Shown: positions 2,499 through 44,899 of the stretch, piece by piece
Position numbering within the stretch: position 1 is the stretch's first letter
How the letters are laid out: every line of letters begins with the position of its first letter
NCBI GenBank assembly: GCA_049513715.1
Contig: JBEKVV010000002.1
Location: 192,001 to 256,000 of the forward strand
Reading direction: 5' to 3'
Length of the DNA: 64,000 nucleotides
Origin: Candidatus Bathyarchaeia archaeon
GTDB taxonomy: Archaea > Thermoproteota > Bathyarchaeia > 40CM-2-53-6
The notes under the pieces: model-generated
What the model saw: the letters and a program-made list of their open reading frames with translations, nothing else
What the model was told of the DNA's origin: nothing
The model's database searches: none
Program-made: the position numbers and the translations under genes

Positions 2499-2918
2499 CT
2501 ACTCGCGTGGCAGAATTTTACCAATCATGATGAGGTCTGCGTGGACCTCGTAGCCAACCGCCTTGAAGAACTCGATTGACTTAGTGTTCGACTTGTAGAT
2601 CTGCGCATTCACTTTCTTTGCTCCTTTCTTCTTCAGCCGTATCTCCAGTTCTGCAATCAGGAGCTTGCCGATTCCTTTTCGTTGATGTTCGGGTTTTACG
2701 GCTAGGTGGTTGATCCAGCCGCGGCGGCCGTCCCAAGCACCCATAACAACTCCTATGATCTCCTCATGATCTGTCGCCACAATGAATAAGTCAGGGTCGC
2801 GCCGAAGTTTCAGCTCGACTCCTTCTAGTTCGTCGCCGGGCCTGATGATTAGCCCAGCATTTTTCCACAGTCGGGTCACCCTCTCGTGGTCACTGATCTT
2901 GAATTCTCGGATACGCAT
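2499..2918 (-). CDS. GNAT family N-acetyltransferase
   Basis: LAVKPEHQRKGIGKLL acetyl-CoA binding motif; GAWDGRRGWINH resembles YpeA-like GNATs. Confidence 0.9.
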   Translation of the reverse strand: MRIREFKISDHERVTRLWKNAGLIIRPGDELEGVELKLRRDPDLFIVATDHEEIIGVVMGAWDGRRGWINHLAVKPEHQRKGIGKLLIAELEIRLKKKGAKKVNAQIYKSNTKSIEFFKAVGYEVHADLIMIGKILPRE

Positions 2919-3037
2919 TGCAGGAACGCCCTTTGTTACGGCATAAGGGAAAAGCAGAAAGATGGACGTTTCGGCACAGATTCTCGAAGAGGGGTTTGGA
3001 GCTTCCTAGAGCGCCCCGGTCAAAGAGGCGTGAATGT

Positions 3038-3178
3038 TGGCGCCGCCGGCAGGGTTCGAACCTGCGACCAACGGGTCACTGTGTTCTGGCAGCTTAACAG
3101 CTTCAGCCCCCACTGGCTTGGTAGGGTCCGCTGCTCTAACCACTGAGCTGGCGTCTACGCGGTTGCGTATACGGCGGC
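3038..3178 (-). tRNA. tRNA-Asn(GUU) with three BHB introns (8/9: 3170-3150; 30/31: 3127-3102; 37/38: 3094-3077)
   Basis: Removing 21+26+18 nt gives the 76-nt cloverleaf GCCGCCG-TA-GCTC-AGTGGTTA-GAGC-A-GCGGG-CTGTTAA-CCCGT-TGGTC-GCAGG-TTCGAAC-CCTGC-CGGCGGC-G-CCA, with encoded CCA and G73. Each insert forms a BHB-type motif. Confidence 0.92.
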
Positions 3179-3220
3179 TCGTGCCTTTCGGCGGCGTTCG
3201 AGCCATTTCCCTTTCAGCGC

Positions 3221-3228
3221 TTTATTAA
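3221..3228 (-). promoter_or_regulatory. Putative TATA box of tRNA-Asn
   Basis: TTAATAAA on the minus strand, starting 33 nt upstream of the leader acceptor copy at 3195. Confidence 0.55.
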
Positions 3229-3261: not shown

Positions 3262-3471
3262 TCATTCCTTCTTTTGGGCAGCTCCACAGAAAGCACACTT
3301 GCGAACGCCCTCGGGAATCAGCGAACTGCATGACTTGCAATTTACAAGCTTCTCAAGCTCAATAAATGGCTCCGCTGAGCTCAACTGTCTGCTCCTCCTG
3401 AGCCAGAGAGACAGAAGGATTAGAACCAGCACAGCGGCAGCCGCAGTGACTGCAACAATCGTCTCGTCCAT
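3262..3471 (-). CDS. Small membrane protein with C-terminal zinc ribbon
   Basis: N-terminal TM helix (IVAVTAAAAVLVLILLSLWL) and CKSC...CAFC; likely ATG start at 3471. Confidence 0.7.
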   Translation of the reverse strand: MDETIVAVTAAAAVLVLILLSLWLRRSRQLSSAEPFIELEKLVNCKSCSSLIPEGVRKCAFCGAAQKKE

Positions 3472-3552
3472 GAAGGCCACCAGTGAAGGTTGAATTGTAG
3501 GTCTACATATCTCTTGCAAACGCAAGAACGAAGCAGGCCTGAGTGGAAACTG

Positions 3553-4818
3553 ATGGGTCATCTTGAAACCGAGGGCTTCCAAAGGGTAAGCACCGTCGAC
3601 GAGGGACTCCGAGTCTTCCTTGATGCAGTGGGCAACCCAAGAATTAGGGTCGAGACTGTTGCACTGGCTCGAGCTATTGGGCGGGTTCTGGGTGAAGATG
3701 TTATCTCAGACCGGTATCTGCCTGGAGTCGATCGCTCAGTTGTCGACGGATACGCGGTGCGTTCAGCGGACCTTCAAAACACTTCGAAGGAAAAACCCGC
3801 TACACTGAAGGTAGTCGGTGAAAGCCGACTCGGCAAGCCATGCAAACTCGCCTTGATTTCGGGAGAGGCTGTAGCGATGGCTACGGGCAGCATGATGCCA
3901 TCTGGGGCCGACTCAGTTGTCATGGTCGAAGAAACCACTGCCTTGCCAGATCACCGAATAAAAGTTCGGGCTTCCGCATTGCCAGGTCAGCATATTTCCC
4001 GGAAAGGCGAAGACGCCGAACCAGGAAAGCAAATCCTACGGAAAGGTAGGCGCCTTCGGCCACAGGACATCGGCATCATGAAGGCTTTAGGCCACACAAA
4101 ATCGCGGGTTGCGAAGAAACCGAGAATCGGCATCATCTCGACCGGTGATGAGCTGGTAGACTCCCCTGCCAGGTTGAGACTGGGAAAGATAGTGGATCTG
4201 AATCGTCCCATCCTTTCAGGCCTCGCTGAAGAATTGGGGGCTGTGCCAGTTGACATAGGAATTGCAAAGGACAACGAAGGAGAAATCATGAATGCTCTTC
4301 GGAGGGCGTTGAAGGTTTCTGATGCGGTCTTGATCAGCGCTGGGTCGTCGGTAGGGAAGAGGGATTTGATCCCGAAATGCATCAATCAGCTCGGAAAGCC
4401 GGGAATCCTCATCCACGGGGTGGCAATGCGTCCAGCTCTGCCAACAGGCCTTGCAGTAGTCAAAGGCAAGCCCGTAGTATCGCTGCCAGGCTTCCCAGTG
4501 TCAGCAATGATCGCCTTCCGCGCCTTCTGCCGACCACTAATCGAACGGCTCTCTGGAGGTCAAATGCAGAATGAGCTCACTGTCAAAGCCGTACTGAAAG
4601 GTTCGATTAACGGAATCCAGGGCAACAGAACCTACGTCAGGGTCTCGCTCAGTCATTCACCGGACGGGCTACTGGCAGAGCCATTGAAGATCCAACGCTC
4701 TTCAGCGTTAATGAGTATGGTCGACGCGAACGGAATCGTCACAATCCCAGAAGGCGTTGCCTCAGTTGAGGCAGGGCAGGTGGTTGATGTGGCAGTAATT
4801 GGGGAAATACAAATGTAG
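3553..4818 (+). CDS. moeA: Molybdopterin molybdenumtransferase MoeA
   Basis: RSVVDGYAV, ATGSMMPSGADSVVMVE, STGDEL, SAGSSVG and LPGFPVSA motifs; ATG at 3553 is preferred over TTG at 3490. Confidence 0.93.
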   Translation: MGHLETEGFQRVSTVDEGLRVFLDAVGNPRIRVETVALARAIGRVLGEDVISDRYLPGVDRSVVDGYAVRSADLQNTSKEKPATLKVVGESRLGKPCKLALISGEAVAMATGSMMPSGADSVVMVEETTALPDHRIKVRASALPGQHISRKGEDAEPGKQILRKGRRLRPQDIGIMKALGHTKSRVAKKPRIGIISTGDELVDSPARLRLGKIVDLNRPILSGLAEELGAVPVDIGIAKDNEGEIMNALRRALKVSDAVLISAGSSVGKRDLIPKCINQLGKPGILIHGVAMRPALPTGLAVVKGKPVVSLPGFPVSAMIAFRAFCRPLIERLSGGQMQNELTVKAVLKGSINGIQGNRTYVRVSLSHSPDGLLAEPLKIQRSSALMSMVDANGIVTIPEGVASVEAGQVVDVAVIGEIQM

Positions 4819-25935: not shown

Positions 25936-26923
25936 GTTTGAAAACCGCAATGATTGCTAACCCGGCAAGCACGATGCCGAGGTAGTACATTTGGAATGGT
26001 GGGGATTCGCCAGTTTGTTGGGCGCCTCCTTTTGACATTACGAAGAACGAGTAGAGGGTTGATCTCCAAACGAAGTTGTAACCTTCCACGTTGAGGTAAA
26101 CATAGGATATGACTGGTGGCTGCTGGCTAGGAGTCGTCAGGTTGAGAACTCGCAACGTATTCTCGAGGTAAGGTGAAATGTTCAACATAATTGTCTGGTT
26201 ACCGTTGGCGTTGAGCTGGAGCAGACTGTAGACAACAACTTGTGGGCTAACTATCAGGAAGCCATCAGATCCTGTGGCTGACTTGGCCAGAACTCTTGAG
26301 CTGTTCCCGTCCATCCAGAAATTGAGAACAGTGTAGATGAGTTTGTGAGGGGCGTTTGGAACGTATTCGGTTATTGAGATGCCTATTGCGGCCCACTCAT
26401 TCGTGGAACTCAGCAACTTCGGTGGTCCCCAATCGAGGGAGACGCTTACGGTCCATTGCCAATCTGTTCGCAGCCCTACGTATGCGGGAGCTGTGAAATC
26501 GCTTGTGAAGTTTGCCTCGTTTACGGCGGGAGGATGGAATCCGCCCTTCACGGTGTAGTAGTCGCCCCATTCGACACGTCTGAATTGCTGGGTTCTAGGC
26601 ACCTCCTTGAAGTTGCAGCATTGCGGACCTACGGCCAAATGCGGCATTCCAACATGCAAATCCTGCCAGGGACCAACAGAGTATCCTATGCGCCCATAAC
26701 CTGGCCCCGAGTCCCAAGTGATCGAGATGTTAGTCAACCCAACCTCAAAACCGGGGATGAAGTTTGCGTCGTAAATGGGGCCGATGTCTGTGGAATTTAG
26801 GGTCGGGTCAATGTTGTAGGCTTGATAACCCTCGGGCGGGTTGAGGAGGACACCCGGGGTCACCACTACGTTTCCGGTTGAGGAGCCGACCAGTAGCGCA
26901 CATATGAGAAGAGCGATGAGCAT
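25883..26923 (-). CDS. Secreted, membrane-anchored hypothetical protein
   Basis: Signal peptide, beta-rich body with N-x-S/T sequons, C-terminal TM. Confidence 0.7.
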   Translation of the reverse strand: MLIALLICALLVGSSTGNVVVTPGVLLNPPEGYQAYNIDPTLNSTDIGPIYDANFIPGFEVGLTNISITWDSGPGYGRIGYSVGPWQDLHVGMPHLAVGPQCCNFKEVPRTQQFRRVEWGDYYTVKGGFHPPAVNEANFTSDFTAPAYVGLRTDWQWTVSVSLDWGPPKLLSSTNEWAAIGISITEYVPNAPHKLIYTVLNFWMDGNSSRVLAKSATGSDGFLIVSPQVVVYSLLQLNANGNQTIMLNISPYLENTLRVLNLTTPSQQPPVISYVYLNVEGYNFVWRSTLYSFFVMSKGGAQQTGESPPFQMYYLGIVLAGLAIIAVFKLKSYKKSDGVDSKTSLM

Positions 26924-26929
26924 GAAAGC

Positions 26930-27619
26930 TCAGCTTTTCACGTTAATGTTCGCTACTGTAATAATGACGCTTCCACCAGTGAACGCTGATCCGCGCAACC
27001 CGTAGATGTAGAGCGACGACAAACTGGCCCAGGCTATTGGGAAATCAGCGAGGACGACTGTATTGCCGACTGTTATTGTCAGGTTTCCGTTTGGTCTCGA
27101 GGCGAGTTGCGGATTCACGGGTGATGGTGGGCCATAGTTAACATACTGCAATGTCACATTATTGGCGCTAATCCAGCTGGGTGAAGTTGAATTGTACAAC
27201 ACCAACCCGTAGGTGTTGTTCCAGTTCTGGGAGAAGTACTCGATTCGAAGCAACCCATCGCCTCTCATCTGCACGATGATGGTTGGGATGGATAGATTCT
27301 CGCTTGGATATTCAGGCGCTAAGGCGAACTGAGCCTCTGAGCCTGCAGCGCCATTCGCTGGAGGTACTAGTTGGCTCTGGATACTCATTTTCCAAGAGCC
27401 GGCATAGGTCGTATTGAATTTGTATTCGGTGTCGTTTGATATTGGTTGATTGAATTTGCCGTAGGGAACTGAAAAGGAGACCATCTTATCATAAACGAAT
27501 TCCCTGGGGGCGCCTCTTTGCAGGTTGACTTGATTATAGAGGATGATGATTGTAGCGGATTCGGCAACTAGGACAACGAGCAAAACCGCAACGAGAATCT
27601 TGAGTTTATTCAACGACAC
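26930..27619 (-). CDS. N-terminally anchored extracellular hypothetical protein
   Basis: N-terminal TM and a beta-rich, N-x-S/T-rich domain; co-oriented in the operon. Confidence 0.7.
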   Translation of the reverse strand: MSLNKLKILVAVLLVVLVAESATIIILYNQVNLQRGAPREFVYDKMVSFSVPYGKFNQPISNDTEYKFNTTYAGSWKMSIQSQLVPPANGAAGSEAQFALAPEYPSENLSIPTIIVQMRGDGLLRIEYFSQNWNNTYGLVLYNSTSPSWISANNVTLQYVNYGPPSPVNPQLASRPNGNLTITVGNTVVLADFPIAWASLSSLYIYGLRGSAFTGGSVIITVANINVKS

Positions 27620-27627
27620 ATTTCCTT

Positions 27628-28908
27628 CTATTGAGTTGCATGAATCTGGCTATTACCCTGTCTCAATAATACTATCAGGTACGCTATGTTGAGGCCGGTG
27701 AATACGGTTCCCAAGATGAAGTTGGTTCCCAACCTTATTGACCCTATCGACTGGCCTAGTTGAGCTTCGATTTGGATTACCTGAGGATATGTGGGCGAGG
27801 CGAACCTCAACAAGAAATAGTTGTTTGAAACAAGAAAGGCTAAAGCAGTTGCCGTAGAGAGTTTGAACAATTTGTTGCGTTGCGGGTTCCAGAGACTAAC
27901 ATCAAGGATTGAGAGTGCTAGGAGGTAGATTGCGTATTGTTCCGTTACCCGACCTTTGAAGATCAAAAATGCCAAGGTCACGACAAGAAGAGACTGCAGA
28001 ACTCCGTAGTCAGTCTCGAACCTGAACTTCCTGGCAGCGATGATTGTGAAGATGAGTATTGCGGGAATCCAGATTGCGCCTAGGATTTCGGTCGTCCGCG
28101 GCTCTAATGGCGGTATGATTCCTAAGTTTACGAGGTAGGCGAGGCCGTCCCACACTGACATGGAATCGCCACCTTTGTCAATCGTCGACCCGAGCGTCCT
28201 GTCCGCAATTGAAAGAGGCCAACCCATCACGGTGAAAGTCACTAGCGATGCAATCGTGGGTAAAGCGATTGCAACAAGGAGCCCCCGTAGGTTCCTGGAT
28301 TGGCCAACGTTGAGCGGTATCGAGTAGATCGCCGGAATGGACTTGGCGAAGCTTCCAAGTCCAGCCCAGAAGCCCTTCTTGATCTGGCTGGTCGAGGTCA
28401 ATGCGATCATTATGAAACTCATGGCTATTGAGTCAAACATCCCCCAGATTCCTGAGATTATTATCGTGAAAGGGCAGAATGTCCAGAAGCGCAGAACCCA
28501 GATGGAACCACTTGCTTTTCTGGATTTGACGTATGAGTAGAGAAGGTAGGCTAGAGTTATGTCTCCCGCTATTACCGGTTGCTTGAGCAGGAAATAGTAG
28601 ACGAACCTGTTTCCGAACCCCACCACTGAATACATCAGGTAAACCGTCCCAGTAATGATGGGCCAGAAGGGAAGATAGGCGATCGTGGGAGTGTTGTTGA
28701 TGGAGAATGAAGAAGCAAAGCTCAGTCCAGGGGCAGGTGGCAGAGAGCTGTACGGATCTCCCCCGTGGATCATCGCGTAACCTAACCTAACCCACAACTC
28801 AAAATCCGTAGGATGCCCAGTCCAAAACGAAAATGCTTCACGGATGAGTACCCCGAGAAGCAAGCTCAGAAGAACTTCACGTTGGGCAAATCGGCTGCGA
28901 ATATTCAT
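27628..28908 (-). CDS. Multi-pass GT-C-type glycosyltransferase (GT87/PIG-M-like)
   Basis: GHPTDF first loop, AYLPFWP, LKQPVIAGD, WGMFDSI; about 10 TM segments. Confidence 0.7.
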   Translation of the reverse strand: MNIRSRFAQREVLLSLLLGVLIREAFSFWTGHPTDFELWVRLGYAMIHGGDPYSSLPPAPGLSFASSFSINNTPTIAYLPFWPIITGTVYLMYSVVGFGNRFVYYFLLKQPVIAGDITLAYLLYSYVKSRKASGSIWVLRFWTFCPFTIIISGIWGMFDSIAMSFIMIALTSTSQIKKGFWAGLGSFAKSIPAIYSIPLNVGQSRNLRGLLVAIALPTIASLVTFTVMGWPLSIADRTLGSTIDKGGDSMSVWDGLAYLVNLGIIPPLEPRTTEILGAIWIPAILIFTIIAARKFRFETDYGVLQSLLVVTLAFLIFKGRVTEQYAIYLLALSILDVSLWNPQRNKLFKLSTATALAFLVSNNYFLLRFASPTYPQVIQIEAQLGQSIGSIRLGTNFILGTVFTGLNIAYLIVLLRQGNSQIHATQ

Positions 28909-30176
28909 TCAGCAGTAGCCATCCGATGAGCCGAAGCTAGCTTCTGAAACACGAACAAAGACTGGTCGCCGAACCTGTTGAATGGGAAATGGTCGGCTAG
29001 GATTTCTTCCATCTTCTCAAGCGGCAGTCCAACTTTTCTGAATTTCAGATAGTGGTCGCTGAGGTAGGCCGGAGGAAGGAAAGCCGGTAGGCCAATCAGC
29101 GTTTTCAGCTTGAAATGACGCTCAAAATGCTCCGCAAACTCTTTGGGTGGATAGTAGAATGCGGGGATGTCCATTCCGCCCACAGAAACCATTACGGGTT
29201 GATTCTTTCTTGGGGTCATCTTGTCGAATTGTAGGACGGCGGCATGCGAGATGGCTTCACTTAGACAGAACGAATTCCTAACTGAGCAAACGAAATATCC
29301 GCCATCCACTAGCAGCGAGGAAAGTTCCGTAACGAACTTGTCCAGTTCCGGTTCGCAGTTGAGTGCGCCATTGAACGAGTAAACCACGTTCACATTTCGC
29401 TCTCCCAAGAAGTCAGCAACTTGTGATATTTCGGCTGCCCTAACCTTGAATGGTATTATACTTTCAGAGAGTCGTTTCGCTTTTATTTTGAGCTTCAGAA
29501 TGTCTATCATTTTTTCTGAAATGTCCGTTGCCACTATTCTTGCGGCGTGCTTTGATATTTCAACGGTCTCCGCCCCAGTGCCACAGCCGACCTCAACCAA
29601 TGTATCGTCTGGATCGACGTGTTTGAGCAATTCAGTGATTGAGCGTTTTCTAATCCATGTGTTTATGAAGTTATGACCGATTGTGAAATCATATTCTTCC
29701 GAGGCCGAATCGAATGCTTCAACGACTCCTCGGAAGTAGTCCTTATGCTCTACGGACCATTCTGCGAAGGTTGTTGTTGCCTCTCCTTCACCCTTGACTG
29801 CTCCTCTAGTATACGGAGGGGCGTCAGGAGTCATACGTAGACAGATGCCTGGATTCGAGTACCATCCGCGGACGGTCCCTGCGCCGTACTTGGTTGTGAA
29901 TGCTCGGACAGTCTGGGCTCTCTCTTCGAGGCTGGCTTCTCTTGCTCTCACATTGAACATGAAAGAATGTGTCCTCACCTTCGCCTTTCCGTTCTTGAGA
30001 GCGTTCAGGACCCAGTCGCTTCGAGCCGCCCCGCCTATGAGATAGAATGAGCCATCTACGAATGCAAATCGGACTCTCGCTATATGCGGCAGCCGCGTCG
30101 TCCGTCCTTCAGTCAGCACCTTGATTGTCTGCTCTGCAAGTATGGATTGATAGATTTGTGAAACCTGAGTTGCCAT
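28905..30176 (-). CDS. Fusion of an N-terminal deazaflavin-dependent nitroreductase-like (DUF385) domain and a class I SAM methyltransferase
   Basis: N-terminal TEGRTTRLPH...SDWVLNAL...FTTKYG; C-terminal VEVGCGTG, TDISEKMI, YSFNGALN. Confidence 0.72.
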   Translation of the reverse strand: MATQVSQIYQSILAEQTIKVLTEGRTTRLPHIARVRFAFVDGSFYLIGGAARSDWVLNALKNGKAKVRTHSFMFNVRAREASLEERAQTVRAFTTKYGAGTVRGWYSNPGICLRMTPDAPPYTRGAVKGEGEATTTFAEWSVEHKDYFRGVVEAFDSASEEYDFTIGHNFINTWIRKRSITELLKHVDPDDTLVEVGCGTGAETVEISKHAARIVATDISEKMIDILKLKIKAKRLSESIIPFKVRAAEISQVADFLGERNVNVVYSFNGALNCEPELDKFVTELSSLLVDGGYFVCSVRNSFCLSEAISHAAVLQFDKMTPRKNQPVMVSVGGMDIPAFYYPPKEFAEHFERHFKLKTLIGLPAFLPPAYLSDHYLKFRKVGLPLEKMEEILADHFPFNRFGDQSLFVFQKLASAHRMATAE

Positions 30177-30218
30177 TTCAACTCATCTCCATCCGAACTG
30201 GATCAATTCGAGAGAGCA

Positions 30219-31181
30219 TCAAGACTTGCTCCCAAACCTGGTCCACAGCTTGTGGCGATTCGTTGAATTCAATGTATCAACTAACGCTAGAAATGTTGAA
30301 ACTGCCTCACTCATTATTGCCGCTGGCAAAGCCAGCACCAATTCGGGAGAACGCGCCAGTGTTCTGATCAAGATGGAGAGACTAAGAAGAGGATTTGTGA
30401 TGAGCATGGATTCCAGTGTTCTTGGTGGTTGTCCGACGGATTCCCAGATTTGGCGATGACCAAACAATATTCTTCTTCGCTGCTCTATCACGTCAACCAT
30501 GTGTTGGGGTACATCGATGTGGACCTTAGCAGATTCGCAGAACTTCACTGAGTATCCACCACGCGTTGAAATCGCCGCCATGTATGCCCCATCATTAACG
30601 GTTTCTGCTGGTAGCTTCTGAAGCGCTTCAGACCGAATTACGAGAAGTTCATCACAGCAATGATTGTTCGTGTTGTCGCGTGTGAGCTCTTCGAGACATT
30701 GATTGTGTGCCGCCCACATCAACCGTAGCACTCCTTGGGTTAGGCCACCCTTCGGGGTGACCAATGGAGAAGCTGAAATCATGCCCGCCGTAACGTCTTT
30801 CCCAATACTAGTCAACAGCTTTGAAATCGCTCCTTGCTCCGGCAGCGCGTCTGAATTTACAAGGACGAGAAATGAACCCTCAAAGGAGTCGATAATTCGA
30901 TTGATAGCCTCAGCCTTGCCGCGCCTCTCCGGTTCCTCAATAATCGTGAAGCGACCATCTCCCTCGGCCAATTCACGAGCGAGCATGAGCGAATTCGGGT
31001 CGCAGCCGCTGGCGACAAGAATGATTTTTCTGAGATTGTATCCCTCTGGGATCGGCTCACGCATTATTGCCGCCAGCAGATTGTTAAGGTTAGTCGCTTG
31101 GTCCGCGGCGCATATTCCTATTGAGAAGTCATTTCGTGACTCGGTGCTAGACTTTGTTGGCACGGTTAGGAGGGTCGCCAT
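30219..31181 (-). CDS. Family 2 glycosyltransferase
   Basis: RRGKAEAIN, VNSDA (DxD-like), NDG and QRRRI (QxxRW-like) motifs. Confidence 0.85.
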   Translation of the reverse strand: MATLLTVPTKSSTESRNDFSIGICAADQATNLNNLLAAIMREPIPEGYNLRKIILVASGCDPNSLMLARELAEGDGRFTIIEEPERRGKAEAINRIIDSFEGSFLVLVNSDALPEQGAISKLLTSIGKDVTAGMISASPLVTPKGGLTQGVLRLMWAAHNQCLEELTRDNTNNHCCDELLVIRSEALQKLPAETVNDGAYMAAISTRGGYSVKFCESAKVHIDVPQHMVDVIEQRRRILFGHRQIWESVGQPPRTLESMLITNPLLSLSILIRTLARSPELVLALPAAIMSEAVSTFLALVDTLNSTNRHKLWTRFGSKS

Positions 31182-31217
31182 TTTCTTGCTAGCACCACGC
31201 CTTGTCGTGTTTCATGG

Positions 31218-32186
31218 TTATTGGCCCCAGAGGGAATACAGCCATTCGTAAAAGTTGGAGGTGTATACGCATGATATTCGACTGAGCTTAGGTTTGAAGA
31301 CTCGATTGTTTCGGCCTTCCGACTTCAGTCTTAGGTTGGTCAAGTATGCTCGGAGGTGAAGGTAGCGGCTTAGGAACGTGAATGCAAGTCCCTCTGCCCA
31401 GTCCAGAAGGATCTCAAGTCCTGTGTAGCCTCCTTCCCTGTGGGACACTCCATCGATGCCATTTTTCTCGAATTCTGACAGTTTCTCATAGTACGGTGCT
31501 GTATAGATTCTCTTGATCCAAGCGTATTGCAGAAGTAGTCTTCTGTAATGGTCCTTTCCGGCGACTGGTTTGGCTTTGAGTACTTCTCGCGCGAAGAGCG
31601 GGCTGTACATGTTTCTTGACTCCTCTCCTGCGATTCCGAGTTCATCGTGAACATAGCTCAAGCAGAATTGTGATAGGTATGCTGGCCGAAGGCGGAACAG
31701 CTTGGTCAGCCTAACGTAGACGAGCATCATGAGCGCCGAGATCCAAAGTCGTTTTCGCTTTGTGACGATGAAAAGGTCTATGTCGTCCCATTTCTCAGCG
31801 CTTCCGTAGGCAACGCTGCCTGTCACGGCGATGGTCTCTATGAAGGGAATCCCTTTAGACAGGATTGCTGCGAAGTTCTTGGCGGAGTTGAGCTTTGCCG
31901 AGGACATTCGTTCTCTCTCCACCCGTTCCAACAATGACTGGCCATGGTGTGTAAGCAGGTACCCACCACTGGCTTGGAACGGGATGTTCGCGAATCTTTT
32001 CAAAGTCAGCAATTGTTGGAGTTGCGAACCTGAGATATTCATTGCGGGGAGAAAATAGTCTGCGACCTCGTTCGCCGTGAAGGGGAAGTCGAGATATGAG
32101 GAGACCTGGTAGACTTTCCTAAGGTCTGAGTGCAGTTTCTCCATATCGACGCGTTCAGGCATCGATAATGTTCTCTGCAACTCCAC
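31218..32186 (-). CDS. Pol-beta-superfamily nucleotidyltransferase domain protein
   Basis: AVTGSVAYGSAEKWDDIDLFIV (GS...DxD) motif. Confidence 0.78.
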   Translation of the reverse strand: MELQRTLSMPERVDMEKLHSDLRKVYQVSSYLDFPFTANEVADYFLPAMNISGSQLQQLLTLKRFANIPFQASGGYLLTHHGQSLLERVERERMSSAKLNSAKNFAAILSKGIPFIETIAVTGSVAYGSAEKWDDIDLFIVTKRKRLWISALMMLVYVRLTKLFRLRPAYLSQFCLSYVHDELGIAGEESRNMYSPLFAREVLKAKPVAGKDHYRRLLLQYAWIKRIYTAPYYEKLSEFEKNGIDGVSHREGGYTGLEILLDWAEGLAFTFLSRYLHLRAYLTNLRLKSEGRNNRVFKPKLSRISCVYTSNFYEWLYSLWGQ

Positions 32187-32350
32187 TAATCCCTCTCATT
32201 GGCCAAGTCGGTTGCGGCTACCCTGTTGCTACATAAAAAAGTTACTACAAACGTAGTAGCTACCAATGTTACTGCGGAAATACAAAAGCCGCCCACAGCA
32301 GGCATGGACGACTGTGTTAACGGGCAAGAGTATACTCATCTGGTTTGGTG

Positions 32351-33325
32351 TTACGGGCTTTCGTAGTAAACTCCGCAATGTTCGCAGTGCCAGTCAGCTC
32401 CTTTGGGTTCATAGATCATGGGCCGGAAACAGATCGGGCATATTGCGCCGTTTAGAACCCGTAAGGGGCGTAGGTGTGGCGGTGCTCGGCGTTTCAAAAT
32501 CTGGCCTAATGGAAGTTGGATTGGCGTTGCAGCATACTTGTAGACGAAGAACGCAGCAGCGAGAGACAAGGGGATCGTTATTACTCCGACAATGATCGAT
32601 CGATTCCAACCGACATCGACGGCAGAATTTGTCGTGACGATTGAGCTGGCGCTCCGTGAATCAATGTGGTTTCCGTCACCTTGCCAAGAAGCCGCCACAG
32701 TCCAAGTGCCCGTTTGGGATGGGAGTAGAAGGAACCTGAAGCTTCCATTCGAGTAGGCCTGTAAGGTGCTGATGGATCTTGTGAGGTTAGGTGAGGTTAT
32801 CGTGATGGTCACGATCGCCTCAGGCACGGCTGGTGAAATCGTCCCAATAAACGTGACAGCAGTGCCCACTGTGGAATTGACGCGTAGCGGGAAGAGTGAG
32901 ATTGTTGTACCTTCCTTTGCTACGACGATCTCAAGCGAGGAGGCTGCGGGGGCGTGGGTACCGTCGCCGTTCCAAACGACGGATACGTTGTAGGAGTCTG
33001 CCGCGGCAGGGATCCAAAGGTACGAGAACGTGCCGTTCTCTGCGGACACTGTTTGGTTGATGGTGGGGAATTGTGATTGGATCAAAATGAAGATGCTCAC
33101 CCGCGCTGTGATGTTGATGGTTCCGAAGAGTGTGACCGAATCGCCGAAGGCGGGGGTGGGTGCTGTGGCTTGTAATATGAGTCGTGTTCCTAGCTTCTTG
33201 GAAGGTTCTGAGTGAACAGTGACTTTGGCTGTGGTTGTAGGAACCGCGAAGCCCAGAACCACGAACGCGGAAATTAGTAGTAGAGCGAGTGACACCGCTC
33301 GTGCAGAGGGCACGGCGAACAACAT
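32351..33325 (-). CDS. Single-pass membrane protein with Ig-like extracellular repeats and a cytoplasmic zinc ribbon
   Basis: Signal peptide, two Ig-like repeats (WNGDGTH, WQGDGNH), TM, then CPIC...CEHC. Confidence 0.75.
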   Translation of the reverse strand: MLFAVPSARAVSLALLLISAFVVLGFAVPTTTAKVTVHSEPSKKLGTRLILQATAPTPAFGDSVTLFGTINITARVSIFILIQSQFPTINQTVSAENGTFSYLWIPAAADSYNVSVVWNGDGTHAPAASSLEIVVAKEGTTISLFPLRVNSTVGTAVTFIGTISPAVPEAIVTITITSPNLTRSISTLQAYSNGSFRFLLLPSQTGTWTVAASWQGDGNHIDSRSASSIVTTNSAVDVGWNRSIIVGVITIPLSLAAAFFVYKYAATPIQLPLGQILKRRAPPHLRPLRVLNGAICPICFRPMIYEPKGADWHCEHCGVYYESP

Positions 33326-33389
33326 CCAATTTGCTCATGAAAGCGGGACGAGTTTCTTAATGCTTTCCGAGGCTTTTCCAGTGGCGTTT

Positions 33390-34259
33390 CTACGTAGGCT
33401 TGAGGCAGGTGGGACACAACGCCAGAATTTGATACGCTGCGTACATGAAGGCCAACCCCAAAACAACTGCGAACGGGAGTCCTGGGAACATGTCACGGCC
33501 CTCGAGCATCTTGAATCCTAAGTAAGCTCCAAGAATGAGGCCGATTCCCGCGGCAACGAACGGGATCAAGCCGAAGCTGATCATTGCGTTGCTCGCCAAC
33601 ATAGAGTAGAAGACCATGTCCCCCATGCCAACGGTCAAGTCGCCGTATGTGAAGACGGCCCCTGTGAATTCCTCTAGGTCGGTTGATTGGGCCATTTTTC
33701 CGATGGGGCCTTTGTACACTGCGAATAGGTCGTACGCTGCCAGCGCCAGCAAGAGCGCGATCGCTGTAAGTGTTGGTATGGATACGCCGAGGAATGTTCC
33801 GGTCATGCCCCCGATGAGAACTATCGCGACTAGGTGCAATGGTCCTTTGGTTTTGTAGATTGCAAGACCTAGGGCGATGGCTCCGAGCAGGCTTATGAGG
33901 AGCCAGAGCCACCCCGTCGGATCCAAGACGGCAGGCAAGTAATCGGCGTATAGGCTTCCATACCAAGTGAAGAGGAAGAACAACAGCGCGAACATGGCGA
34001 TGTTGATGAGATACCGAACCACGCGTTTCAGTCCGAATCTTATGAGGAGGTACATCAGAGTCCCAGCGGCCGCCATCAATACGACAAAGATCCCTGCGTT
34101 CAACGTAATTCCACCAGGCGTTTCTGGGAACACCGTGATCGGTGTAATGGAGGCGTTAGAAGCACGAAGACTGAAAGTCAGCGCGCCAGCCAAAATGACC
34201 GCACATATTTCCGGGAGCAATTGCCCCGGCTTTGCTTTGAACTCTTTATCCTTACTCAT
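33390..34259 (-). CDS. Presenilin/signal peptide peptidase family intramembrane aspartyl protease
   Basis: AYDLFAV (YD), GMGD (GxGD) and PGLP (PAL-like) motifs; multiple TMs. Confidence 0.88.
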   Translation of the reverse strand: MSKDKEFKAKPGQLLPEICAVILAGALTFSLRASNASITPITVFPETPGGITLNAGIFVVLMAAAGTLMYLLIRFGLKRVVRYLINIAMFALLFFLFTWYGSLYADYLPAVLDPTGWLWLLISLLGAIALGLAIYKTKGPLHLVAIVLIGGMTGTFLGVSIPTLTAIALLLALAAYDLFAVYKGPIGKMAQSTDLEEFTGAVFTYGDLTVGMGDMVFYSMLASNAMISFGLIPFVAAGIGLILGAYLGFKMLEGRDMFPGLPFAVVLGLAFMYAAYQILALCPTCLKPT

Positions 34260-34800
34260 TCCTTAACTCCACCAATGCTTGCTGACATTTTCCGCATAGA
34301 CTAGAACCTTTCATGTCCGTGTCTTCCAAAGATTCAGACAAATGCATTACGCACAACTCATCTTGGCAGTGGTTTAGCCCTAGCGTGTGCCCTACCTCAT
34401 GGACAGCTTCCTTCACCATGCGTTCTGCATACAGACTATGCGTCTCCGAGCCTGTTGCCTTCAGTCTGTGAGTTGAAATCACACCCACGCGTCCGGCCAG
34501 TCTAGCTTCACCGAAAACGAAGTTCATCCCTGGGGCATAGATGTCATAATCAGTAATTGCCAATAAGCGACATACTTGGGTCGATTGGATATGTTTCTCA
34601 AGCAGTGCTAGAATTCTTGTGGAGTGATATTGAATTCTCCTTGAGTCGAAGGCTTCAGCGATATCCAAGAATGGCGGAAGTGTCTCCACTTCAAACCAGG
34701 GATACTTGGACTGTAGGGGATCCATGAGGGCATCTAGAGAATGGTCGGAGCTGTCACCTACTTGCAGTAGGCCCAGTGACTCAGACGTCGTAAGTTTCAC
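34252..34800 (-). CDS. amzA: Archaemetzincin zinc protease
   Basis: MNFVFGEA, KEAVHEVGHTLGLNHC...CVM...CGKC. Confidence 0.92.
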   Translation of the reverse strand: MKLTTSESLGLLQVGDSSDHSLDALMDPLQSKYPWFEVETLPPFLDIAEAFDSRRIQYHSTRILALLEKHIQSTQVCRLLAITDYDIYAPGMNFVFGEARLAGRVGVISTHRLKATGSETHSLYAERMVKEAVHEVGHTLGLNHCQDELCVMHLSESLEDTDMKGSSLCGKCQQALVELRNE

Positions 34801-36040
34801 CAGGCCGAGGAGTCGTTGTCTTCAACCCAAGCTCATTCGTCGCCCAGTCGGCCAGGAGCTTGCAGTTTGCTTCCTCGCCGTGGATTACGAACACGTGTGT
34901 TGTTTTGTCTAGCTCCTTCAGGGTCTCGTGGAGTTGGGTTTTTCCGCCGTGTGAGGAGAAATCGTATTTTTCGACTCTGGCTTTGACTTTCTGTGCTTTG
35001 CCGTGCAGTATGAAATGCCCTTCGTCCAGAAGGATTCTGCCTGGCGATCCTGGGACTTGGTAGCTGACCAAGAATATGCCATTGCCTTCATTGAGTGCTA
35101 TGTTTTCCATGTAGAAGACGGATGCTCCCCCCTTGAGCATTCCCGCTGGCGATACTATCACTCCTGCGGTGCGAGCTGCTCGCCTTCGGCCATGCCAGTT
35201 AGTTATTTGCTCGGCCTCCCGCATGGCCCTCTCGAACTGTTCGCCATTCCTCAGCGAGTTCGGATACTCCTCAAGCATTCTGATCGCATCCAACGCCATA
35301 CCGTCGACGAAGACAGGGTGAGCGAAGTTGTTGTCGGCGAGCATGCAAATGATTTCTTGTGAACGCCCTACACCGAAGGCTGGGACAAGCACAGTGCCTC
35401 CACGCTCGACCACCTCATTGCAGGCAAGAACGAAATTGTGCTCCGATGTCGCTCTATCAGGGTGGTCTTCTGCCGCATATGTGCTCTCGATGACTATTGC
35501 ATCCAGATTCTTGTAGGCCCTATCGGCGCCCGTAACTAGGTGTGTGGGAACGAGGTTGAAGTCGCCCGTATAGAGAGCACGTTTTCCATCAGACTCGACG
35601 ATTACCTGGGCGCTGCCCGGTATGTGGCCGGCGTTCACCAATGTGACTTTCATGTCGCCGACCTTGAACTCCGAATGGTAATCGGTCGGGACGACGTGGC
35701 TGAGCATGCTTTCGAGGTCGATGTATTCGAATGGCAGGTAGTAACCACTCAGTTTGATCATGTCGCGGATGAGGACTTTGGTAAGTGCGAAGGTGGGTTC
35801 AACACCGTAGAGGGGCAGCTTTGATGTGTGAACATAGAAGAGTGGAATCAGGCCGCTGTGGTCGAGGTGTGCATGTGTTAGCACAACCGCGTTCAAGTCT
35901 CTTGGTGAGATGTGAACGGGAAAACCTACGTCGTGATTTATCATCACGCCATAATCCATGAGGATTTGGGTGCGCTGAGTCTTTGCAGCGATGCCGGACC
36001 TACCGACCTCTTGACATGCTCCAAGGAACCGTAATTGCAT
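34781..36040 (-). CDS. beta-CASP metallo-beta-lactamase ribonuclease (aCPSF2-like, no KH domains)
   Basis: GACQEVGRS, THAHLDHSG, AGHIPGSA, YTGD, ESTY, FSSH and HGE. Confidence 0.9.
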   Translation of the reverse strand: MQLRFLGACQEVGRSGIAAKTQRTQILMDYGVMINHDVGFPVHISPRDLNAVVLTHAHLDHSGLIPLFYVHTSKLPLYGVEPTFALTKVLIRDMIKLSGYYLPFEYIDLESMLSHVVPTDYHSEFKVGDMKVTLVNAGHIPGSAQVIVESDGKRALYTGDFNLVPTHLVTGADRAYKNLDAIVIESTYAAEDHPDRATSEHNFVLACNEVVERGGTVLVPAFGVGRSQEIICMLADNNFAHPVFVDGMALDAIRMLEEYPNSLRNGEQFERAMREAEQITNWHGRRRAARTAGVIVSPAGMLKGGASVFYMENIALNEGNGIFLVSYQVPGSPGRILLDEGHFILHGKAQKVKARVEKYDFSSHGGKTQLHETLKELDKTTHVFVIHGEEANCKLLADWATNELGLKTTTPRPGETYDV

Positions 36041-36118
36041 CAGTAATCAGCTAATCTCTAATCTCTTTGTGTTTTGTTGCTGGGACCTTCCAGCTTCGAA
36101 AGAGGGACTGATCTAGGG

Positions 36119-36826
36119 TCAACCGTACATGCCGCGCAGTGAACGCGCAGTCTGCTGAAGCCGTTTGTCAATTTCCCCCTCAATATCCTTAGCGTCATAT
36201 TCCAAGTCTCTCACGTCAACCTTAAGCCCATAAGCTTTAGACACGGTTCTGATTGCAGTTGCAGCCGCTTTCGGATCAGCGTGATTCGCCGAGGCGTAGG
36301 GCAAAATAGCGACCGCTGGAAAGTTGCGCTTCTCGAATTCGCCAAGCATAACTGCGAGCGGTCCGTATACGAATAGGCCTGCCTCAAGCGTCGAATGTTT
36401 GATTTTCTTCTTTTTCACAGAGTAGACGCTGGTTGAGACAACTCTAACCCCATCCCGTCCTGATTGCAGGCTTGCGTCCAGGCCACCGATTAGAACGGCG
36501 TCTTTGAACTTGTTATCCATTACCCAATGGGCCACAGTCTTCGCAAATTCAGATTCCTCCGCTCTGTGTGGCGAGAATTCGAGTTTGAGCAAGACGAAAT
36601 TCTTTGCTTGGTAGACTTCGAATGGTGTTACCAATCCTTCTTCGGAGGTTGCAATGAAAGGGGGTGGGTGAGCTACATCAACGAATCCTATTCTTTTGGC
36701 ATTTAGGGAGTGTACGAGATATGAGACGGCGATATACCCTGTTTCACCAACGCCGTGAAAGCCTGTGATCAGCGTTGAGTTGCGCAGGTTGGTTGCGCGA
36801 ACTAGGAAGTTGACGGGCAAATGCAA
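36119..36826 (-). CDS. PAC2 family proteasome assembly chaperone
   Basis: LITGFHGVGETGYIA, LIGGLD, DPKAAA and a C-terminal MYG (HbYX-like) tail. Confidence 0.85.
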   Translation of the reverse strand: MHLPVNFLVRATNLRNSTLITGFHGVGETGYIAVSYLVHSLNAKRIGFVDVAHPPPFIATSEEGLVTPFEVYQAKNFVLLKLEFSPHRAEESEFAKTVAHWVMDNKFKDAVLIGGLDASLQSGRDGVRVVSTSVYSVKKKKIKHSTLEAGLFVYGPLAVMLGEFEKRNFPAVAILPYASANHADPKAAATAIRTVSKAYGLKVDVRDLEYDAKDIEGEIDKRLQQTARSLRGMYG

Positions 36827-37088
36827 TTTTCCTCAAGCTACTTTGGAGAAGTTCACAGAACTTGTGTCGCGGACGAATGGTTGGCGCAGTATAATAACTT
36901 CGCTAGGCCCATTCCAAACGAAACGTAATCTCTTGAACGCCGAAGGTGGATTATTTTAGACCGTGACATTCGTTTTTCCGCGATATAGAGGTCTTGTTCG
37001 CCGCAGGTGTCCTTTCCGGGCGCGCTTAGAATAATGCTTATTTAAGCGGCGGTTAGATGCAAAGGGAATTACTTGAGGTAACAAAAAA

Positions 37089-38717
37089 ATGTCCTATCTC
37101 ACTGGTCAACCTATTCTCATTTTGAAGGAAGGAGCGTCTCGAAACAGAGGCCGAGACGCGCAACATAGTAACATCACCGCTGCAATCATCGTATCTGAAG
37201 TCGTCAAAAGTACTTTGGGCCCACGAGGGATGGATAAGATGCTCGTGGACACTTTAGGCGACGTGACAGTTACTAACGATGGTGCCACAGTTCTCGACGA
37301 AATTGACGTTCAAAACCCCGCTGCCAAGATGATGGTTGAAGTCGCTAAGACTCAGGATGATGAGGTCGGCGATGGAACCACGACCGCGGTAATACTCGCT
37401 GGAGGTTTGCTCAAACGAGCACAGGACCTGTTGGACGACGATGTCCATCCAACAACTATCGTGGCGGGCTACAAGAAAGCAGCAGACAAAGCGGTTCAAG
37501 TTCTCGACTCGCTGTCCGAACCGATCAAAGTTGATGATAAGGTCGGCCTCAAAAAGGTCGCCATGACTGCGATGCACAGCAAAGGGCTCGGGGGAGCTCG
37601 CGAACACTTCGCCGATATTGCCCTCGAAGCGGTTCAACTGGTTAAGGAGAAGCGCGGAGATTCATGGTATGCGGATATCGACAACATTCAACTGGTCAAG
37701 AAAGAGGGCAAGAGCCTTCTCGACACGGAACTGGTGAAGGGCATCATCGTCGACAAAGAAGTCGTACATTCAGGAATGCCGAAGCAAATCAAGAACGCCA
37801 AGATCGCACTGCTTGACGCTGCCCTTGAAATCGAGAAGACTGAGATTTCGGCTGAGATTCGAATTAACGACCCAACACAGATGAAGGCCTTCTTGGATGA
37901 GGAAACTCATATGATGAAGGATATGGTGGACAAGATCAAAGCCTCTGGAGCCAACGTTGTGCTCTGCCAGAAGGGTATTGACGACACCACACAACACTAC
38001 CTATCCAAAGAGGGCATTCTAGGCGTTCGGAGAATCAAGAAATCAGACATGGAAAAGTTGGGGAGGGCGACTGGCGGCCGAATAATCACAAACCTCGACG
38101 ACCTCAAAGCCCCTGACCTTGGAAAGGCCGCGCTAGTTGAGGAACGAAAAATCGGTGACGACAAAATGGTTTTCATTGAAGGCTGCAAAGACCCGAGGGC
38201 CGTTAGCATATTGATCAGGGCTGGGCTCGAACGTTTGGTGGATGAAGCTGAAAGGGCGTTGAAGGATGCGATTTCAGTCTTGATCGATGTTGTGCAGAAA
38301 CCCAAAGTGGTCACTGGTGCTGGCGCAATTGAGGCAGAGCTTTCGAAGAAGCTCAGGGACTACGCTGCTAAGGTTGGCGGCCGCGAACAGCTGGCCATAG
38401 AGGCTTTTGCCGATACGCTTGAGATGATTCCCAAAACGCTCGCTGAGAACGCAGGCCTCGACCCAATCGACATAATGGTGGCCCTCCGCTCAGCACACGA
38501 CACGAAAACCGGTGTCACATTTGGCGTGGACGTGCTGAAGGGTGGGGTCAAGGACATGAAGAAGCAAGGCGTCGTCGAACCAGTTCGAGTCAAGGAGCAG
38601 GCAATCAAATCTGCAGCCGAAGCGGCATCGATGATTCTGAGGATTGACGACGTGATCGCTGCAGCGAAATCGGCACCCACACCGCCTCCTAGAGGCGGCG
38701 AAATGCCAGAATACTAA
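37089..38717 (+). CDS. ths: Thermosome (group II chaperonin) subunit
   Basis: [25 protein letters not shown] and LRIDDVIAA. Confidence 0.97.
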
Positions 38718-38718
38718 A

Positions 38719-38753
38719 CCCCCTTTCCACTCTTCCTTCTTCTATTCCTTTCC
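38719..38753 (+). terminator. Pyrimidine-rich tract after the thermosome gene (putative terminator)
   Basis: C/T-rich run immediately after the stop codon. Confidence 0.4.
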
Positions 38754-38767
38754 GCGTTTGCACACGG

Positions 38768-38775
38768 TTAAAATA
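38768..38775 (+). promoter_or_regulatory. Putative TATA box of tRNA-Glu
   Basis: TTAAAATA starting 32 nt upstream of the leader acceptor copy at 38800, flanked by the 7-bp inverted repeat GCACACG/CGTGTGC. Confidence 0.55.
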
Positions 38776-38816
38776 GCGTGTGCTCTCGATAGTCGGATTG
38801 CTCCGGGCAACTGTGG

Positions 38817-38967
38817 GCTCCGGTAGAAGCGTTCTGCTACCGAATATAGCCCGGTCAAGGCGATTAGTCGCCGAGAGTATGCTGGCCTCTCGAGCATGAC
38901 GGGGAGAGTCAGCGACGCGGGTTCAAAAGCGAGTGCTCAACCGCTGAAAATCCCGCCCGGAGCACCA
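38817..38967 (+). tRNA. tRNA-Glu(CUC) with four BHB introns (10/11: 38827-38844; 20b/21: 38858-38875; 37/38: 38893-38906; 59/60: 38928-38950)
   Basis: Removing 18+18+14+23 nt gives the 78-nt GCTCCGG-TA-GTAT-AGCCCGGTCAA-GTAT-G-CTGGC-CTCTCGA-GTCAG-CGAC-GCGGG-TTCAAAT-CCCGC-CCGGAGC-A-CCA, a typical archaeal tRNA-Glu with encoded CCA. Confidence 0.9.
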
Positions 38968-39057
38968 AACCTCAAACGAATTTTGGGGCCGTGCGCCGAT
39001 TTCTTGGACCCCATAGGGTGGGGAGGGTTAGTTTTTTGCCCACCAAGCAATAATGGC

Positions 39058-40770: not shown

Positions 40771-41227
40771 CGCGTTTCAGTTCCCCCACGGCTCGAACAA
40801 CTTGTCACAGGCTGAGGGTTCAAAGATATCATATATCCGAATAAAACCTGTGAGTTTCTCTGGTGTTACCGAACGACTTCAAGCCAAAGAAAGACGATTT
40901 CCGCGGCTGGATCGTCGCGAAAACCGCTTGGAGCACTCAGCTATCCAACCTCGAAGTCACAGTCAGGGTTGGGGGTTCTTCGTGATTTTGTGGCTGGAGC
41001 CAGCAAGGCTTTCAGGAAGGCTTGGGGCGCATGTCTAACAGGGTAGTCTCAACTGAGCAAGTGCGGTTAATGTGATGCAATTGTGAACGGTTTCAATCAG
41101 AATCCCAAACGCAATTGCCGAGCTCTGTAAATAGATTTCATTTGGTGGAATTTTCATCCAACGCCTTAATAATCCATTCAACTCACGAACAAGCCACATC
41201 AAAGTGAATGTTGAACGGTGAACTGGT

Positions 41228-41602
41228 TTGGATGTTCCTAGGTTTACCGATCTCGAATTGTTCCTTATGTCAGGTTGGATATCCTACATACTAGTCCGAA
41301 CTCTTGCCGACTCCGTCAAACTCCGGTTATACTTAGACTTCAAGGACTGGAAGATCAAGGTCGGAAGGCCGTTGCAGTCTCAGCCCAAGTCCGTGTTTGG
41401 CAAGGCCTCCCAGGCGATTGGCGGACAGAAGGATGTCCCGAACACGCATATTCATCACTTTGTGTTTGGGATGGGCCTCATGCCGTTCACTTTTATTGCC
41501 CTTTACTGGCGCTTCTGGTTTGGCCCAATACTGGCTGGCGTGGTCATGGCGCTAGTATTTTCCGAAATCAAAGAACTCGTTCTGATGAACTGGGGCCAAT
41601 AG
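41228..41602 (+). CDS. Small membrane hypothetical protein
   Basis: HIHHFVFG motif with 2-3 TM segments. Confidence 0.6.
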   Translation: MDVPRFTDLELFLMSGWISYILVRTLADSVKLRLYLDFKDWKIKVGRPLQSQPKSVFGKASQAIGGQKDVPNTHIHHFVFGMGLMPFTFIALYWRFWFGPILAGVVMALVFSEIKELVLMNWGQ

Positions 41603-41765
41603 ATCGTCCACACAATCCCAAGTCCTGGATATTTCAGGAGCAAATAATCCGGCGAATGCATCACGGCGGAGGCGGGCTGAACTCATCGACTAATGTGGTG
41701 AAACAGGGCGATGAGTAGAACACTGAGAAGCTTTTTGAGTTAAGAATAGGACCTGATAGCGCTTG

Positions 41766-41873
41766 GGGCCCGTAGCTCAGCTAGGTTAGAGCGACAGAAA
41801 ACCAAAGGTCGAAGCTCATAAGAAGAACGGAGAAACCTGCTGGTCGAGGGTTCGAATCCCTCCGGGCCCACCA
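41766..41873 (+). tRNA. tRNA with CAU anticodon, most likely Ile2, with two BHB introns (30/31: 41798-41813; 37/38: 41821-41834)
   Basis: Removing 16+14 nt gives the 78-nt GGGCCCG-TA-GCTC-AGCTAGGTTA-GAGC-G-ACAGG-CTCATAA-CCTGC-TGGTC-GAGGG-TTCGAAT-CCCTC-CGGGCCC-A-CCA. The GGGCCC acceptor is Ile-like rather than initiator or elongator Met. Confidence 0.88.
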
Positions 41874-41953
41874 TCAAAACCAATGCCTCTTCTCGTTCCT
41901 GCATGATGTGTTAGCGGGACAAGTGATATCGTGCGTATGGGTTCAGCTTGGCT

Positions 41954-43555: not shown

Positions 43556-43629
43556 ATCGCACCTTTTGGGACTGTTCCGTTGGTATTATTAGAAGTTGAC
43601 GCGCTCACGTGCTTCGCTGATGCTGTGCC

Positions 43630-44823: not shown

Positions 44824-44899
44824 AGCCCCAGATTTGTTCAGTAATTTAGTCTCAGTTCTTTTATACGCGAGCGAAACTCACTAAACATCCGGGATTTTC

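Follow-up and report, generated by a model that had tools for sequence, protein, structure and literature searches.

A leader copy of the acceptor strand accompanies a tRNA-Asn intron at position 8/9 in Bathyarchaeia

Described archaeal tRNA introns and the tRNA-Asn gene

The persistence of a tRNA intron in archaea is held to require a site at which a BHB motif can form, and for an intron at position 8/9 this is possible only if the tRNA's most stable stem is opened. In the portions consulted, a review of archaeal BHB introns (PMC4090602) lists positions 30/31 and 37/38 and mentions an acceptor-stem intron at 3/4 in Thermoproteales, and a second article (PMC12397907) places tRNA introns in acceptor-stem regions. 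The introns described here resemble the Thermoproteales type, as presented in the covered part of the review, in being short, bounded by BHB motifs and three to a gene. However, positions 8/9, 10/11 and 68/69 are absent from the position list in its text (a list ending in 'etc.', with figure 2 outside our coverage), and the covered text of neither source describes, for known archaeal BHB introns, a stem strand that is copied in the leader or trailer. Intron-rich tRNA genes also occur in Asgard archaea (PMC11291895; bioRxiv 10.64898/2026.10.13.758758), which are another lineage; the sections covered mention no flanking decoy, and 8/9 may be among the few Asgard inserts of the bioRxiv manuscript. 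Nothing on 8/9 was found in the covered parts of PMC8450103, PMC11291895, PMC3293823 and PMC7714728. The literature searched, from which some figures, supplements and primary papers were missing, yielded no 8/9 intron, no Bathyarchaeia tRNA introns and no leader copy. The intron described below is of an ordinary type, sits at a position that appears not to be listed and belongs to the sole tRNA-Asn gene detected; its coupling to a flanking stand-in strand was not found in print.

Split and permuted tRNAs (Nanoarchaeum, Caldivirga, Aeropyrum, Thermofilum; PMC3218864, PMC4033280 and PMC4390854, each covered in part) share one feature with the Asn leader, in that sequence outside the tRNA pairs, holds the pieces for EndA and is later discarded. 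In those systems, as far as covered, the flanks pair with each other, form part of the BHB and join separate or permuted halves. The Asn gene, in contrast, is colinear, and its flank would pair with an exon strand distant from the cleavage site, replacing the strand borrowed by the BHB. A split tRNA was rejected because the four exons follow one another colinearly in 141 nt downstream of a single box. The leader-trailer BHB of a split tRNA was likewise rejected, since the predicted partner of the leader copy is exon positions 66-72 and the BHB consists of exon 1 and intron, as was a permuted tRNA, since the upstream element repeats the 5′ strand and not the 3′ half.

The tRNA-Asn(GUU) gene of this Bathyarchaeia genome lies at 3178-3038 on the minus strand of the window (the whole 64-kb stretch of DNA analysed). 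Its exons are 8, 22, 7 and 39 nt long, the last including CCA, and its inserts 21, 26 and 18 nt. Exon 1 (3171-3178, tRNA positions 1-8), placed by sequence and BHB scoring, is followed by intron 1 at 8/9 (3150-3170), exon 2 (3128-3149, positions 9-30), intron 2 at 30/31 (3102-3127), exon 3 (3095-3101, positions 31-37, anticodon GUU), the canonical intron 3 at 37/38 (3077-3094, placed by BHB scoring) and exon 4 (3038-3076, positions 38-76, with G73 and encoded CCA). Upstream on the same strand are a 10-nt leader spacer (3179-3188), an exact copy of acceptor nucleotides 1-7 (GCCGCCG, 3189-3195) that starts 17 nt before G1 and is complementary to positions 66-72, and a TATA-like box, TTAATAAA (3221-3228), a putative promoter element 25 nt 5′ of the copy. 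The neighbouring reading frames, labelled by eye, are presumably an acetyltransferase-like protein downstream (2499-2918, minus strand), a small membrane protein with a Cys-rich end upstream (3262-3582, minus strand) and, beyond the latter, a molybdopterin-biosynthesis-like protein (3490-4818, plus strand).

Nine registers were tried per insert in BHB scoring. The optimum for insert 1 was 8/9, with three of four central pairs formed with acceptor nucleotides 3-6 (the single mismatch is C5-A), a 2-bp outer and a 5-bp inner helix (h and h′), and two 3-nt bulges between them. At 9/10 only two of four central pairs remained and the flanking helices were absent. In the predicted fold the final GA of the spacer pairs with C13 and U12 and lengthens the outer helix to 4 bp. 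Insert 2 forms a perfect hBHBh′ at 30/31 (central 4/4, outer 2, inner 6), and insert 3 scores 4/4, 1 and 1 at 37/38, its outer helix growing from one pair to three or more once insert 2 is out. The first-pass annotation had proposed three BHB-type introns and preferred 8/9 on geometry; every helix it quoted is present and each insert scores as a BHB, so the reading stands as far as it went, but the leader copy had gone unnoticed. By our own scoring, removal of all three inserts would give a canonical 76-nt tRNA-Asn(GUU) that matches intron-less orthologs. ARAGORN also called Asn(GTT), 76 nt, on a product whose insert 2 was one base off.

The unspliced gene was detected by neither ARAGORN nor Rfam in the 64-kb window; the Rfam match to tRNA-Asn covers only the part from position 9 onward and falls below the cut-off. 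Rfam does find another gene at 41766. This tRNA (41766-41873, plus strand) has a CAU anticodon and two likely introns, and is labelled Ser(CGA) in the ARAGORN scan of the genome. An ARAGORN 'tRNA-Asn(gtt)' at G000 C3:44654-44785 is a miscall, as two BHB removals give Arg(UCU). In this genome the tRNA-Asn exon sequences are present a single time, and no second Asn gene emerged when the genome was screened for further acceptor pairs, T-arms and GUU loops, in line with the single gene assumed in the first-pass annotation; the gene is probably essential, and its inserts are presumably excised. Three DNA sequencing runs span the stretch and show no difference from it. With the assembly 99.4% complete and 8.79% contaminated, and with no tRNA-His gene found by the genome searches, there is some room for a second Asn gene. 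The His gene may be unassembled or interrupted beyond the reach of the patterns; a candidate at C6:9568 was dropped as not a tRNA. Isolated 3′ tRNA fragments, comprising T-arm and acceptor strand, are numerous (G000 C1:892314, C3:166055, C3:181344, C4:149704, C4:150377, C5:206519 and others). Several are nearly identical, and they look like attachment-site remnants of integrated elements.

The 8/9 insert in relatives

Orthologs were collected by a DNA search of 61 relatives and by pattern searches of 301 members of the class and 401 of the phylum. Five rows that had been parsed from the leader copy were re-anchored before counting, and two intron-less pattern matches (L120, L142) were removed as not tRNAs. 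Of the 97 distinct sequences in the main set, 75 carry an insert behind U8 and 22 lack it; ten further distinct Asn genes with an 8/9 insert came from two more Bathyarchaeia families. All full Asn genes recovered from the order of the window carry the insert, and it is also found in families f14, f20 and f24 and in one genus of f31; in all it occurs in several Bathyarchaeia orders. It is absent from the genes of f17 and of three other f31 genera. Outside the class it was found in none of 325 genomes with a phylum pattern that demands Asn-type ends GCCGCCGT and AGCTCAG, and that divergent genes would escape; pattern matches in three of these genomes (L339-L341) have no tRNA 3′ end and were rejected. 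Two genomes have two Asn genes each. In G176 both (L121, L122) have intron and copy, and in G213 (L118, L119) one has both and the other neither, the latter being on a 4.5-kb contig that is perhaps contamination.

The register can be read from these genes. The first base of the insert is T, G or C in 51/75 orthologs, which excludes 9/10 as an equivalent cut, and U8-A9 is read in all 22 intron-less orthologs. The ambiguity between 8/9 and 9/10 that had been left by the sequence of this one gene is thereby settled, and in favour of the register that geometry had suggested. The central helix has four of four pairs in 37/75 orthologs and three of four in the other 38. The outer helix spans 2-7 bp, being at least 2 bp in 75/75 and at least 4 bp in 48/75; the same two spacer bases would pair in 10/22 intron-less genes. 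Pairs 1-4 of the inner helix form in 65, 62, 55 and 52 of 67 distinct introns, each with several pair types, and these counts were unmatched in 1000 permutations that do not correct for relatedness. Insert lengths, as first parsed, range over 18-42 nt while the exons are conserved. An insert at 30/31 is present in 75/75 genes bearing the 8/9 intron and one at 37/38 in 58/75. The spread, the register and the helix covariation together argue against a chance insertion, and on this comparative evidence the 8/9 insert is an old, selected intron.

That the 21-nt insert is instead retained, as a bulge or in a dead gene, or is cut at 9/10, seems to us barely credible. The central-helix mismatch in this genome could be taken to favour retention, as could the room left for a second Asn gene by contamination and the missing His isotype, and the one RNA contig available is unspliced. 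However, conserved exons around inserts that vary in length, an inner helix that covaries across the class and the failure to find another Asn gene in the genome speak against it, and a cut at 9/10 would leave U9 in 49/75 orthologs. The RNA contig comes from a metatranscriptome of a close relative. It is 178 nt long, has five differences, covers 3035-3199 and runs from the CCA end to four bases past the leader copy, and so fits a precursor that includes the copy. This is a weak hint, as neither transcript start nor strand is visible in a contig and the library may contain DNA. No spliced joint was present among the contigs of this single RNA run (the other 23 of 24 runs are DNA, flagged as possible sources and left out of the supporting evidence), and neither a circular intron nor a mapped start was seen for tRNA-Asn. 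The same run holds no near-identical contig over window positions 26000-45900, which include the tRNA-Glu gene described below, an absence that proves nothing.

Leader copies at strand-borrowing introns

Leader copies are not confined to tRNA-Asn. Genes whose introns borrow an acceptor strand were found by listing the tRNA genes of the genome on acceptor complementarity. A leader copy was present in 6/6 genes with an intron at 3/4, 8/9 or 10/11 as against 0/38 others (p = 1.4e-7, a test that was not blind because leaders and introns were viewed together); not all of the 44 genes parsed well, and several isotype labels among the 38 controls were assigned by eye. The six copies lie 12-27 nt upstream and form 6-7 Watson-Crick pairs with their own 3′ strand, against a background of 1-2% of random 37-mers. 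Moreover, each of the six leaders fits its own acceptor but only 0-2 of 21 other acceptor sequences.

The second such gene in the window, tRNA-Glu(CUC) (38817-38967, plus strand), has four introns and was missed by ARAGORN and Rfam. Its first intron, at 10/11 (38827-38844), pairs with acceptor nucleotides 5-8, and a perfect copy (GCTCCGG, 38800-38806) lies 17 nt upstream. The remaining four are on the minus strand elsewhere in the genome. tRNA-Leu(CAG) (L112; G000 C5:220321-220117) has four introns, one of them a perfect 8/9 intron, and a leader in which a 6-base copy is accompanied by another element, complementary to the D-loop. tRNA-Cys (L184; G000 C1:747087) has an 8/9 intron, tRNA-Trp (L186; G000 C1:372443) a 10/11 intron and tRNA-Gly(CCC) (L247; G000 C1:573481) a 3/4 intron, each with a leader copy. 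The Gly leader holds an extra element complementary to positions 9-15; the leaders of both Leu and Gly have a second element complementary to the D-arm. The 5′ end of another Gly locus, L296, looks rearranged.

In the main Asn set the copy is present in 75/75 intron-bearing genes versus 1/22 intron-less genes, and all ten Asn genes of the further families form a duplex of 7-10 bp. Orthologs of the Leu, Cys, Glu, Trp and Gly genes were taken from searches of the 61 relatives (at most 30 loci per search); the Leu set includes other Leu isoacceptors, and other Gly isoacceptors fell outside the pattern. Among the matches listed, the six loci give 236 distinct sequences, of which 179 have intron and copy, one the intron only, five the copy only and 51 neither; since orthologs are related, these counts are not independent events. 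The sole intron without a copy among these matches is a perfect 8/9 intron in a tRNA-Leu(GAG) gene (L176; G017 C4:953270-956312), which may reflect a recent transfer of the 5′ end between Leu genes. The G000 ortholog of L176 lacks the 8/9 intron and has a longer upstream stretch. Three of the five genes with only the copy (Glu L234 and L235, Leu L170) lie in the genus of the window, and as their sister genomes have the intron, recent intron loss is suggested. The intron-copy contrast rests on Watson-Crick pairs. With G-U freely allowed, 12/21 intron-less Asn leaders give duplexes of 6-8 nt, compared with 7-11 nt in 83/83 intron-bearing genes, and intron-less Asn genes retain long leaders (median 47 nt from box start); some of these G-U-tolerant duplexes may be decayed copies.

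Could the upstream copy be the true exon 1, and the stretch to the second copy a further intron inside the acceptor strand? The copy does sit at the likely transcript start, and among the matches listed a four-pair helix can be drawn for Cys at 7/8 (27/27) and for Gly at 5/6 (18/18), but these helices arise because the two strands are palindromic. In Asn, registers 1-7 give four pairs in at most 6/75 genes. Copy and proximal strand differ in, for example, L044, L022 and L125; a mismatch at position 7 is seen in some Asn copies whose proximal strand is intact, and the Leu(CAG) copy has just six matching bases in 15/15 of the genes listed. We consider an upstream exon 1 very unlikely. In L044 (G059), U5 of the proximal acceptor strand perfects the central helix of the BHB, and the leader copy retains C5.

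A mirror case was found at the other end of the molecule. tRNA-Asp(GUC) (L308; G000 C4:144551-144656, plus strand) has a perfect BHB intron at 68/69, on the side of the 3′ acceptor strand, that borrows the 3′ T-stem strand. The trailer directly after CCA complements the 5′ T-stem strand over 5-8 bp in 23/23 intron-bearing versus 0/5 intron-less genes, the former all from one genus and the latter from one other genus, with L337-L338 unparsed. In folding predictions the central helix of the Asp motif has a probability of 0.85-0.95 with the trailer and 0.03-0.09 without it in 21/23 genes. This is a single contrast, yet it is predicted by the rule that fits the leaders.

The copy might also be a neutral scar of real introns, if the event that brought the intron duplicated the 5′ end of the gene and the old start stayed. 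The geometry is compatible with this, as the copy occupies the place that G1 has in most of the genome's other tRNA genes; from box end to G1 is 22-30 nt in 25/26 control genes with a matched box, and from box start to copy 30-36 nt in 59 Asn orthologs with one. The Leu(CAG) leader looks like exon 1 followed by the opening bases of the intron, and five intron-less genes among the matches listed score as retaining the copy. However, the copy has been kept across several orders despite changes in the length and sequence of the spacer, the distance from Asn copy to G1 ranging over 11-24 nt. Moreover, where copies in intron-bearing genes have changed in register at positions 1-6 (23 cases), C has been replaced by T, keeping a G-U pair (four other changed rows, which are shifted 7-mers or L176, were set apart). 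The pairing reaches over N73-CCA, extending in 25/75 Asn genes to C74 or beyond, which is more than a copy of nucleotides 1-7 alone provides, and the Asp trailer complements bases outside the duplicated part. The extended duplex and the retention of wobble pairs indicate that the leader copy is more than a mere repeat, and a scar is in our view unlikely.

Predicted folding, splicing machinery and order of processing

The first-pass annotation had expected a broad-specificity EndA, (αβ)2 or ε2, and the genome does encode genes of the (αβ)2 type. Of its two EndA-domain genes, L001 (186 aa) passes the endA cut-off and aligns along its length with 3p1z/3ajv and 2cv8 (E 2.5e-41 to 8.7e-39), including a loop with KPK that matches the crenarchaeal loop. 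The alignment with 3p1z and 2cv8 also spans the triad motifs, which makes Tyr, His and Lys the putative triad. L002 (192 aa) is beta-like, in that it falls below the endA cut-off, matches beta-subunit models and is without the His motif. Of 28 loci with EndA protein matches, 26 are from Candidatus Bathyarchaeia or Bathyarchaeota (63-85% identity). The two proteins of this genome share the loop and the pairing of alpha and beta genes with the Aeropyrum pernix type, whose (αβ)2 EndA has the crenarchaea-specific loop K44-P45-R46 according to the covered part of PMC12397907. Judged by sequence, the enzyme is of the (αβ)2 type with a crenarchaeal loop, its assembly and activity being predicted. Genes for RtcB and RNase P RNA are also present.

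The 8/9 motif needs nucleotides 1-7 and therefore competes with the acceptor stem. In folding predictions the leaderless Asn precursor adopts the true acceptor stem and lacks the BHB. Once the leader is included, the 3′ strand is taken up by the copy and the 8/9 motif gains its outer and inner helices, with the central part slipped. Across the six loci (among the matches listed), the copy pairs with the 3′ strand at a mean predicted probability of 0.93-1.00 and the true acceptor stem forms at 0.00-0.05; with a 5-nt leader, the true acceptor is predicted at 0.84-0.98 in five loci and 0.44 in Gly. The central helix varies more, its probability with the copy being 0.85 for Glu, 0.58 for Trp, 0.29 for Leu, 0.26 for Gly and 0.01 for Cys among these matches, with a mean of 0.04 for Asn and 0.0 for Asn of this genome. 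Even when the leader is present, reaching the Asn BHB fold costs about 6.7 kcal/mol, and as the model also lacks the central helix, binding by protein must be assumed for Asn. Replacing the copy makes the BHB fold costlier in 64/75 Asn genes (median 2.8 kcal/mol) and, among the matches listed, in 26/27 Cys (5.8 kcal/mol), 17/18 Glu (2.9 kcal/mol) and 17/22 Trp genes (0.9 kcal/mol); in Leu and Gly the effect is about zero, the copy making the fold cheaper in 8/15 and 11/18 of the genes listed. A7 served as the control replacement, because GC-rich shuffled 7-mers still pair. The folding model supports release of the strand by the copy, and not spontaneous formation of the Asn motif.

Another use for the same pairing would be quality control, the copy masking the discriminator and CCA and diverting RNase P and tRNase Z until splicing is complete. 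In 64/75 Asn genes N73 is paired by the base preceding the copy, compared with 6/75 for the base preceding G1, and the duplexes that reach C74 or further in a third of the Asn set do so in 15/16 of the Leu genes listed; the near-zero folding gain for Leu and Gly also fits such a role. However, none of the 38 other tRNA genes of this genome, among them genes with many introns elsewhere, has a copy, so that the need for a copy tracks the borrowed strand and not the intron load. Among the matches listed, the base before the Cys copy pairs with N73 in only 1/27, the Asp trailer pairs with the T-stem and not the 3′ end, and a pyrimidine before the copy may merely be start-site context. We doubt that quality control is the main role.

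The reading that we consider probable is that the inserts are BHB introns and that the copy in the leader engages the 3′ acceptor strand by pairing, thereby freeing the true strand for the 8/9 motif and acting as a tether. From the promoter spacing, transcription would start at the copy or a few bases before it. The copy is predicted to pair with positions 66-72, and often with N73 and CCA too, to give a false acceptor stem, while nucleotides 3-6 would pair with the intron's 3′ end and nucleotides 1-2 with positions 10-11 to form the BHB, as sequence and covariation indicate. The (αβ)2 EndA would then cut, the false stem tethering the 8-nt exon 1 until ligation by RtcB. The 30/31 intron would leave before that at 37/38, because C32-U33 is shared by the two motifs and the canonical one acquires its outer helix only afterwards. 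Finally, the true strand would retake the acceptor stem and RNase P would remove the leader; with that sequence of events, splicing would precede 5′ maturation.

We also think it fairly likely that a general rule operates in Bathyarchaeia, by which introns that borrow a stem strand are provided with a surrogate strand in the leader (3/4, 8/9 and 10/11) or the trailer (68/69), with separate origins at seven or more loci, a sequence of its own at each, and with splicing before RNase P and tRNase Z. The standard finders miss these genes, and Bathyarchaeia assemblies will therefore seem to be without tRNA-Asn, -Cys or -Trp, while a finder may mistake the leader copy for the start of the gene. If the rule is true, introns could colonise the acceptor stem. 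With a stand-in strand built into the transcript, it would be understandable that such sites become habitable, leaders and trailers would have an active role in folding, and the order of processing would be set.
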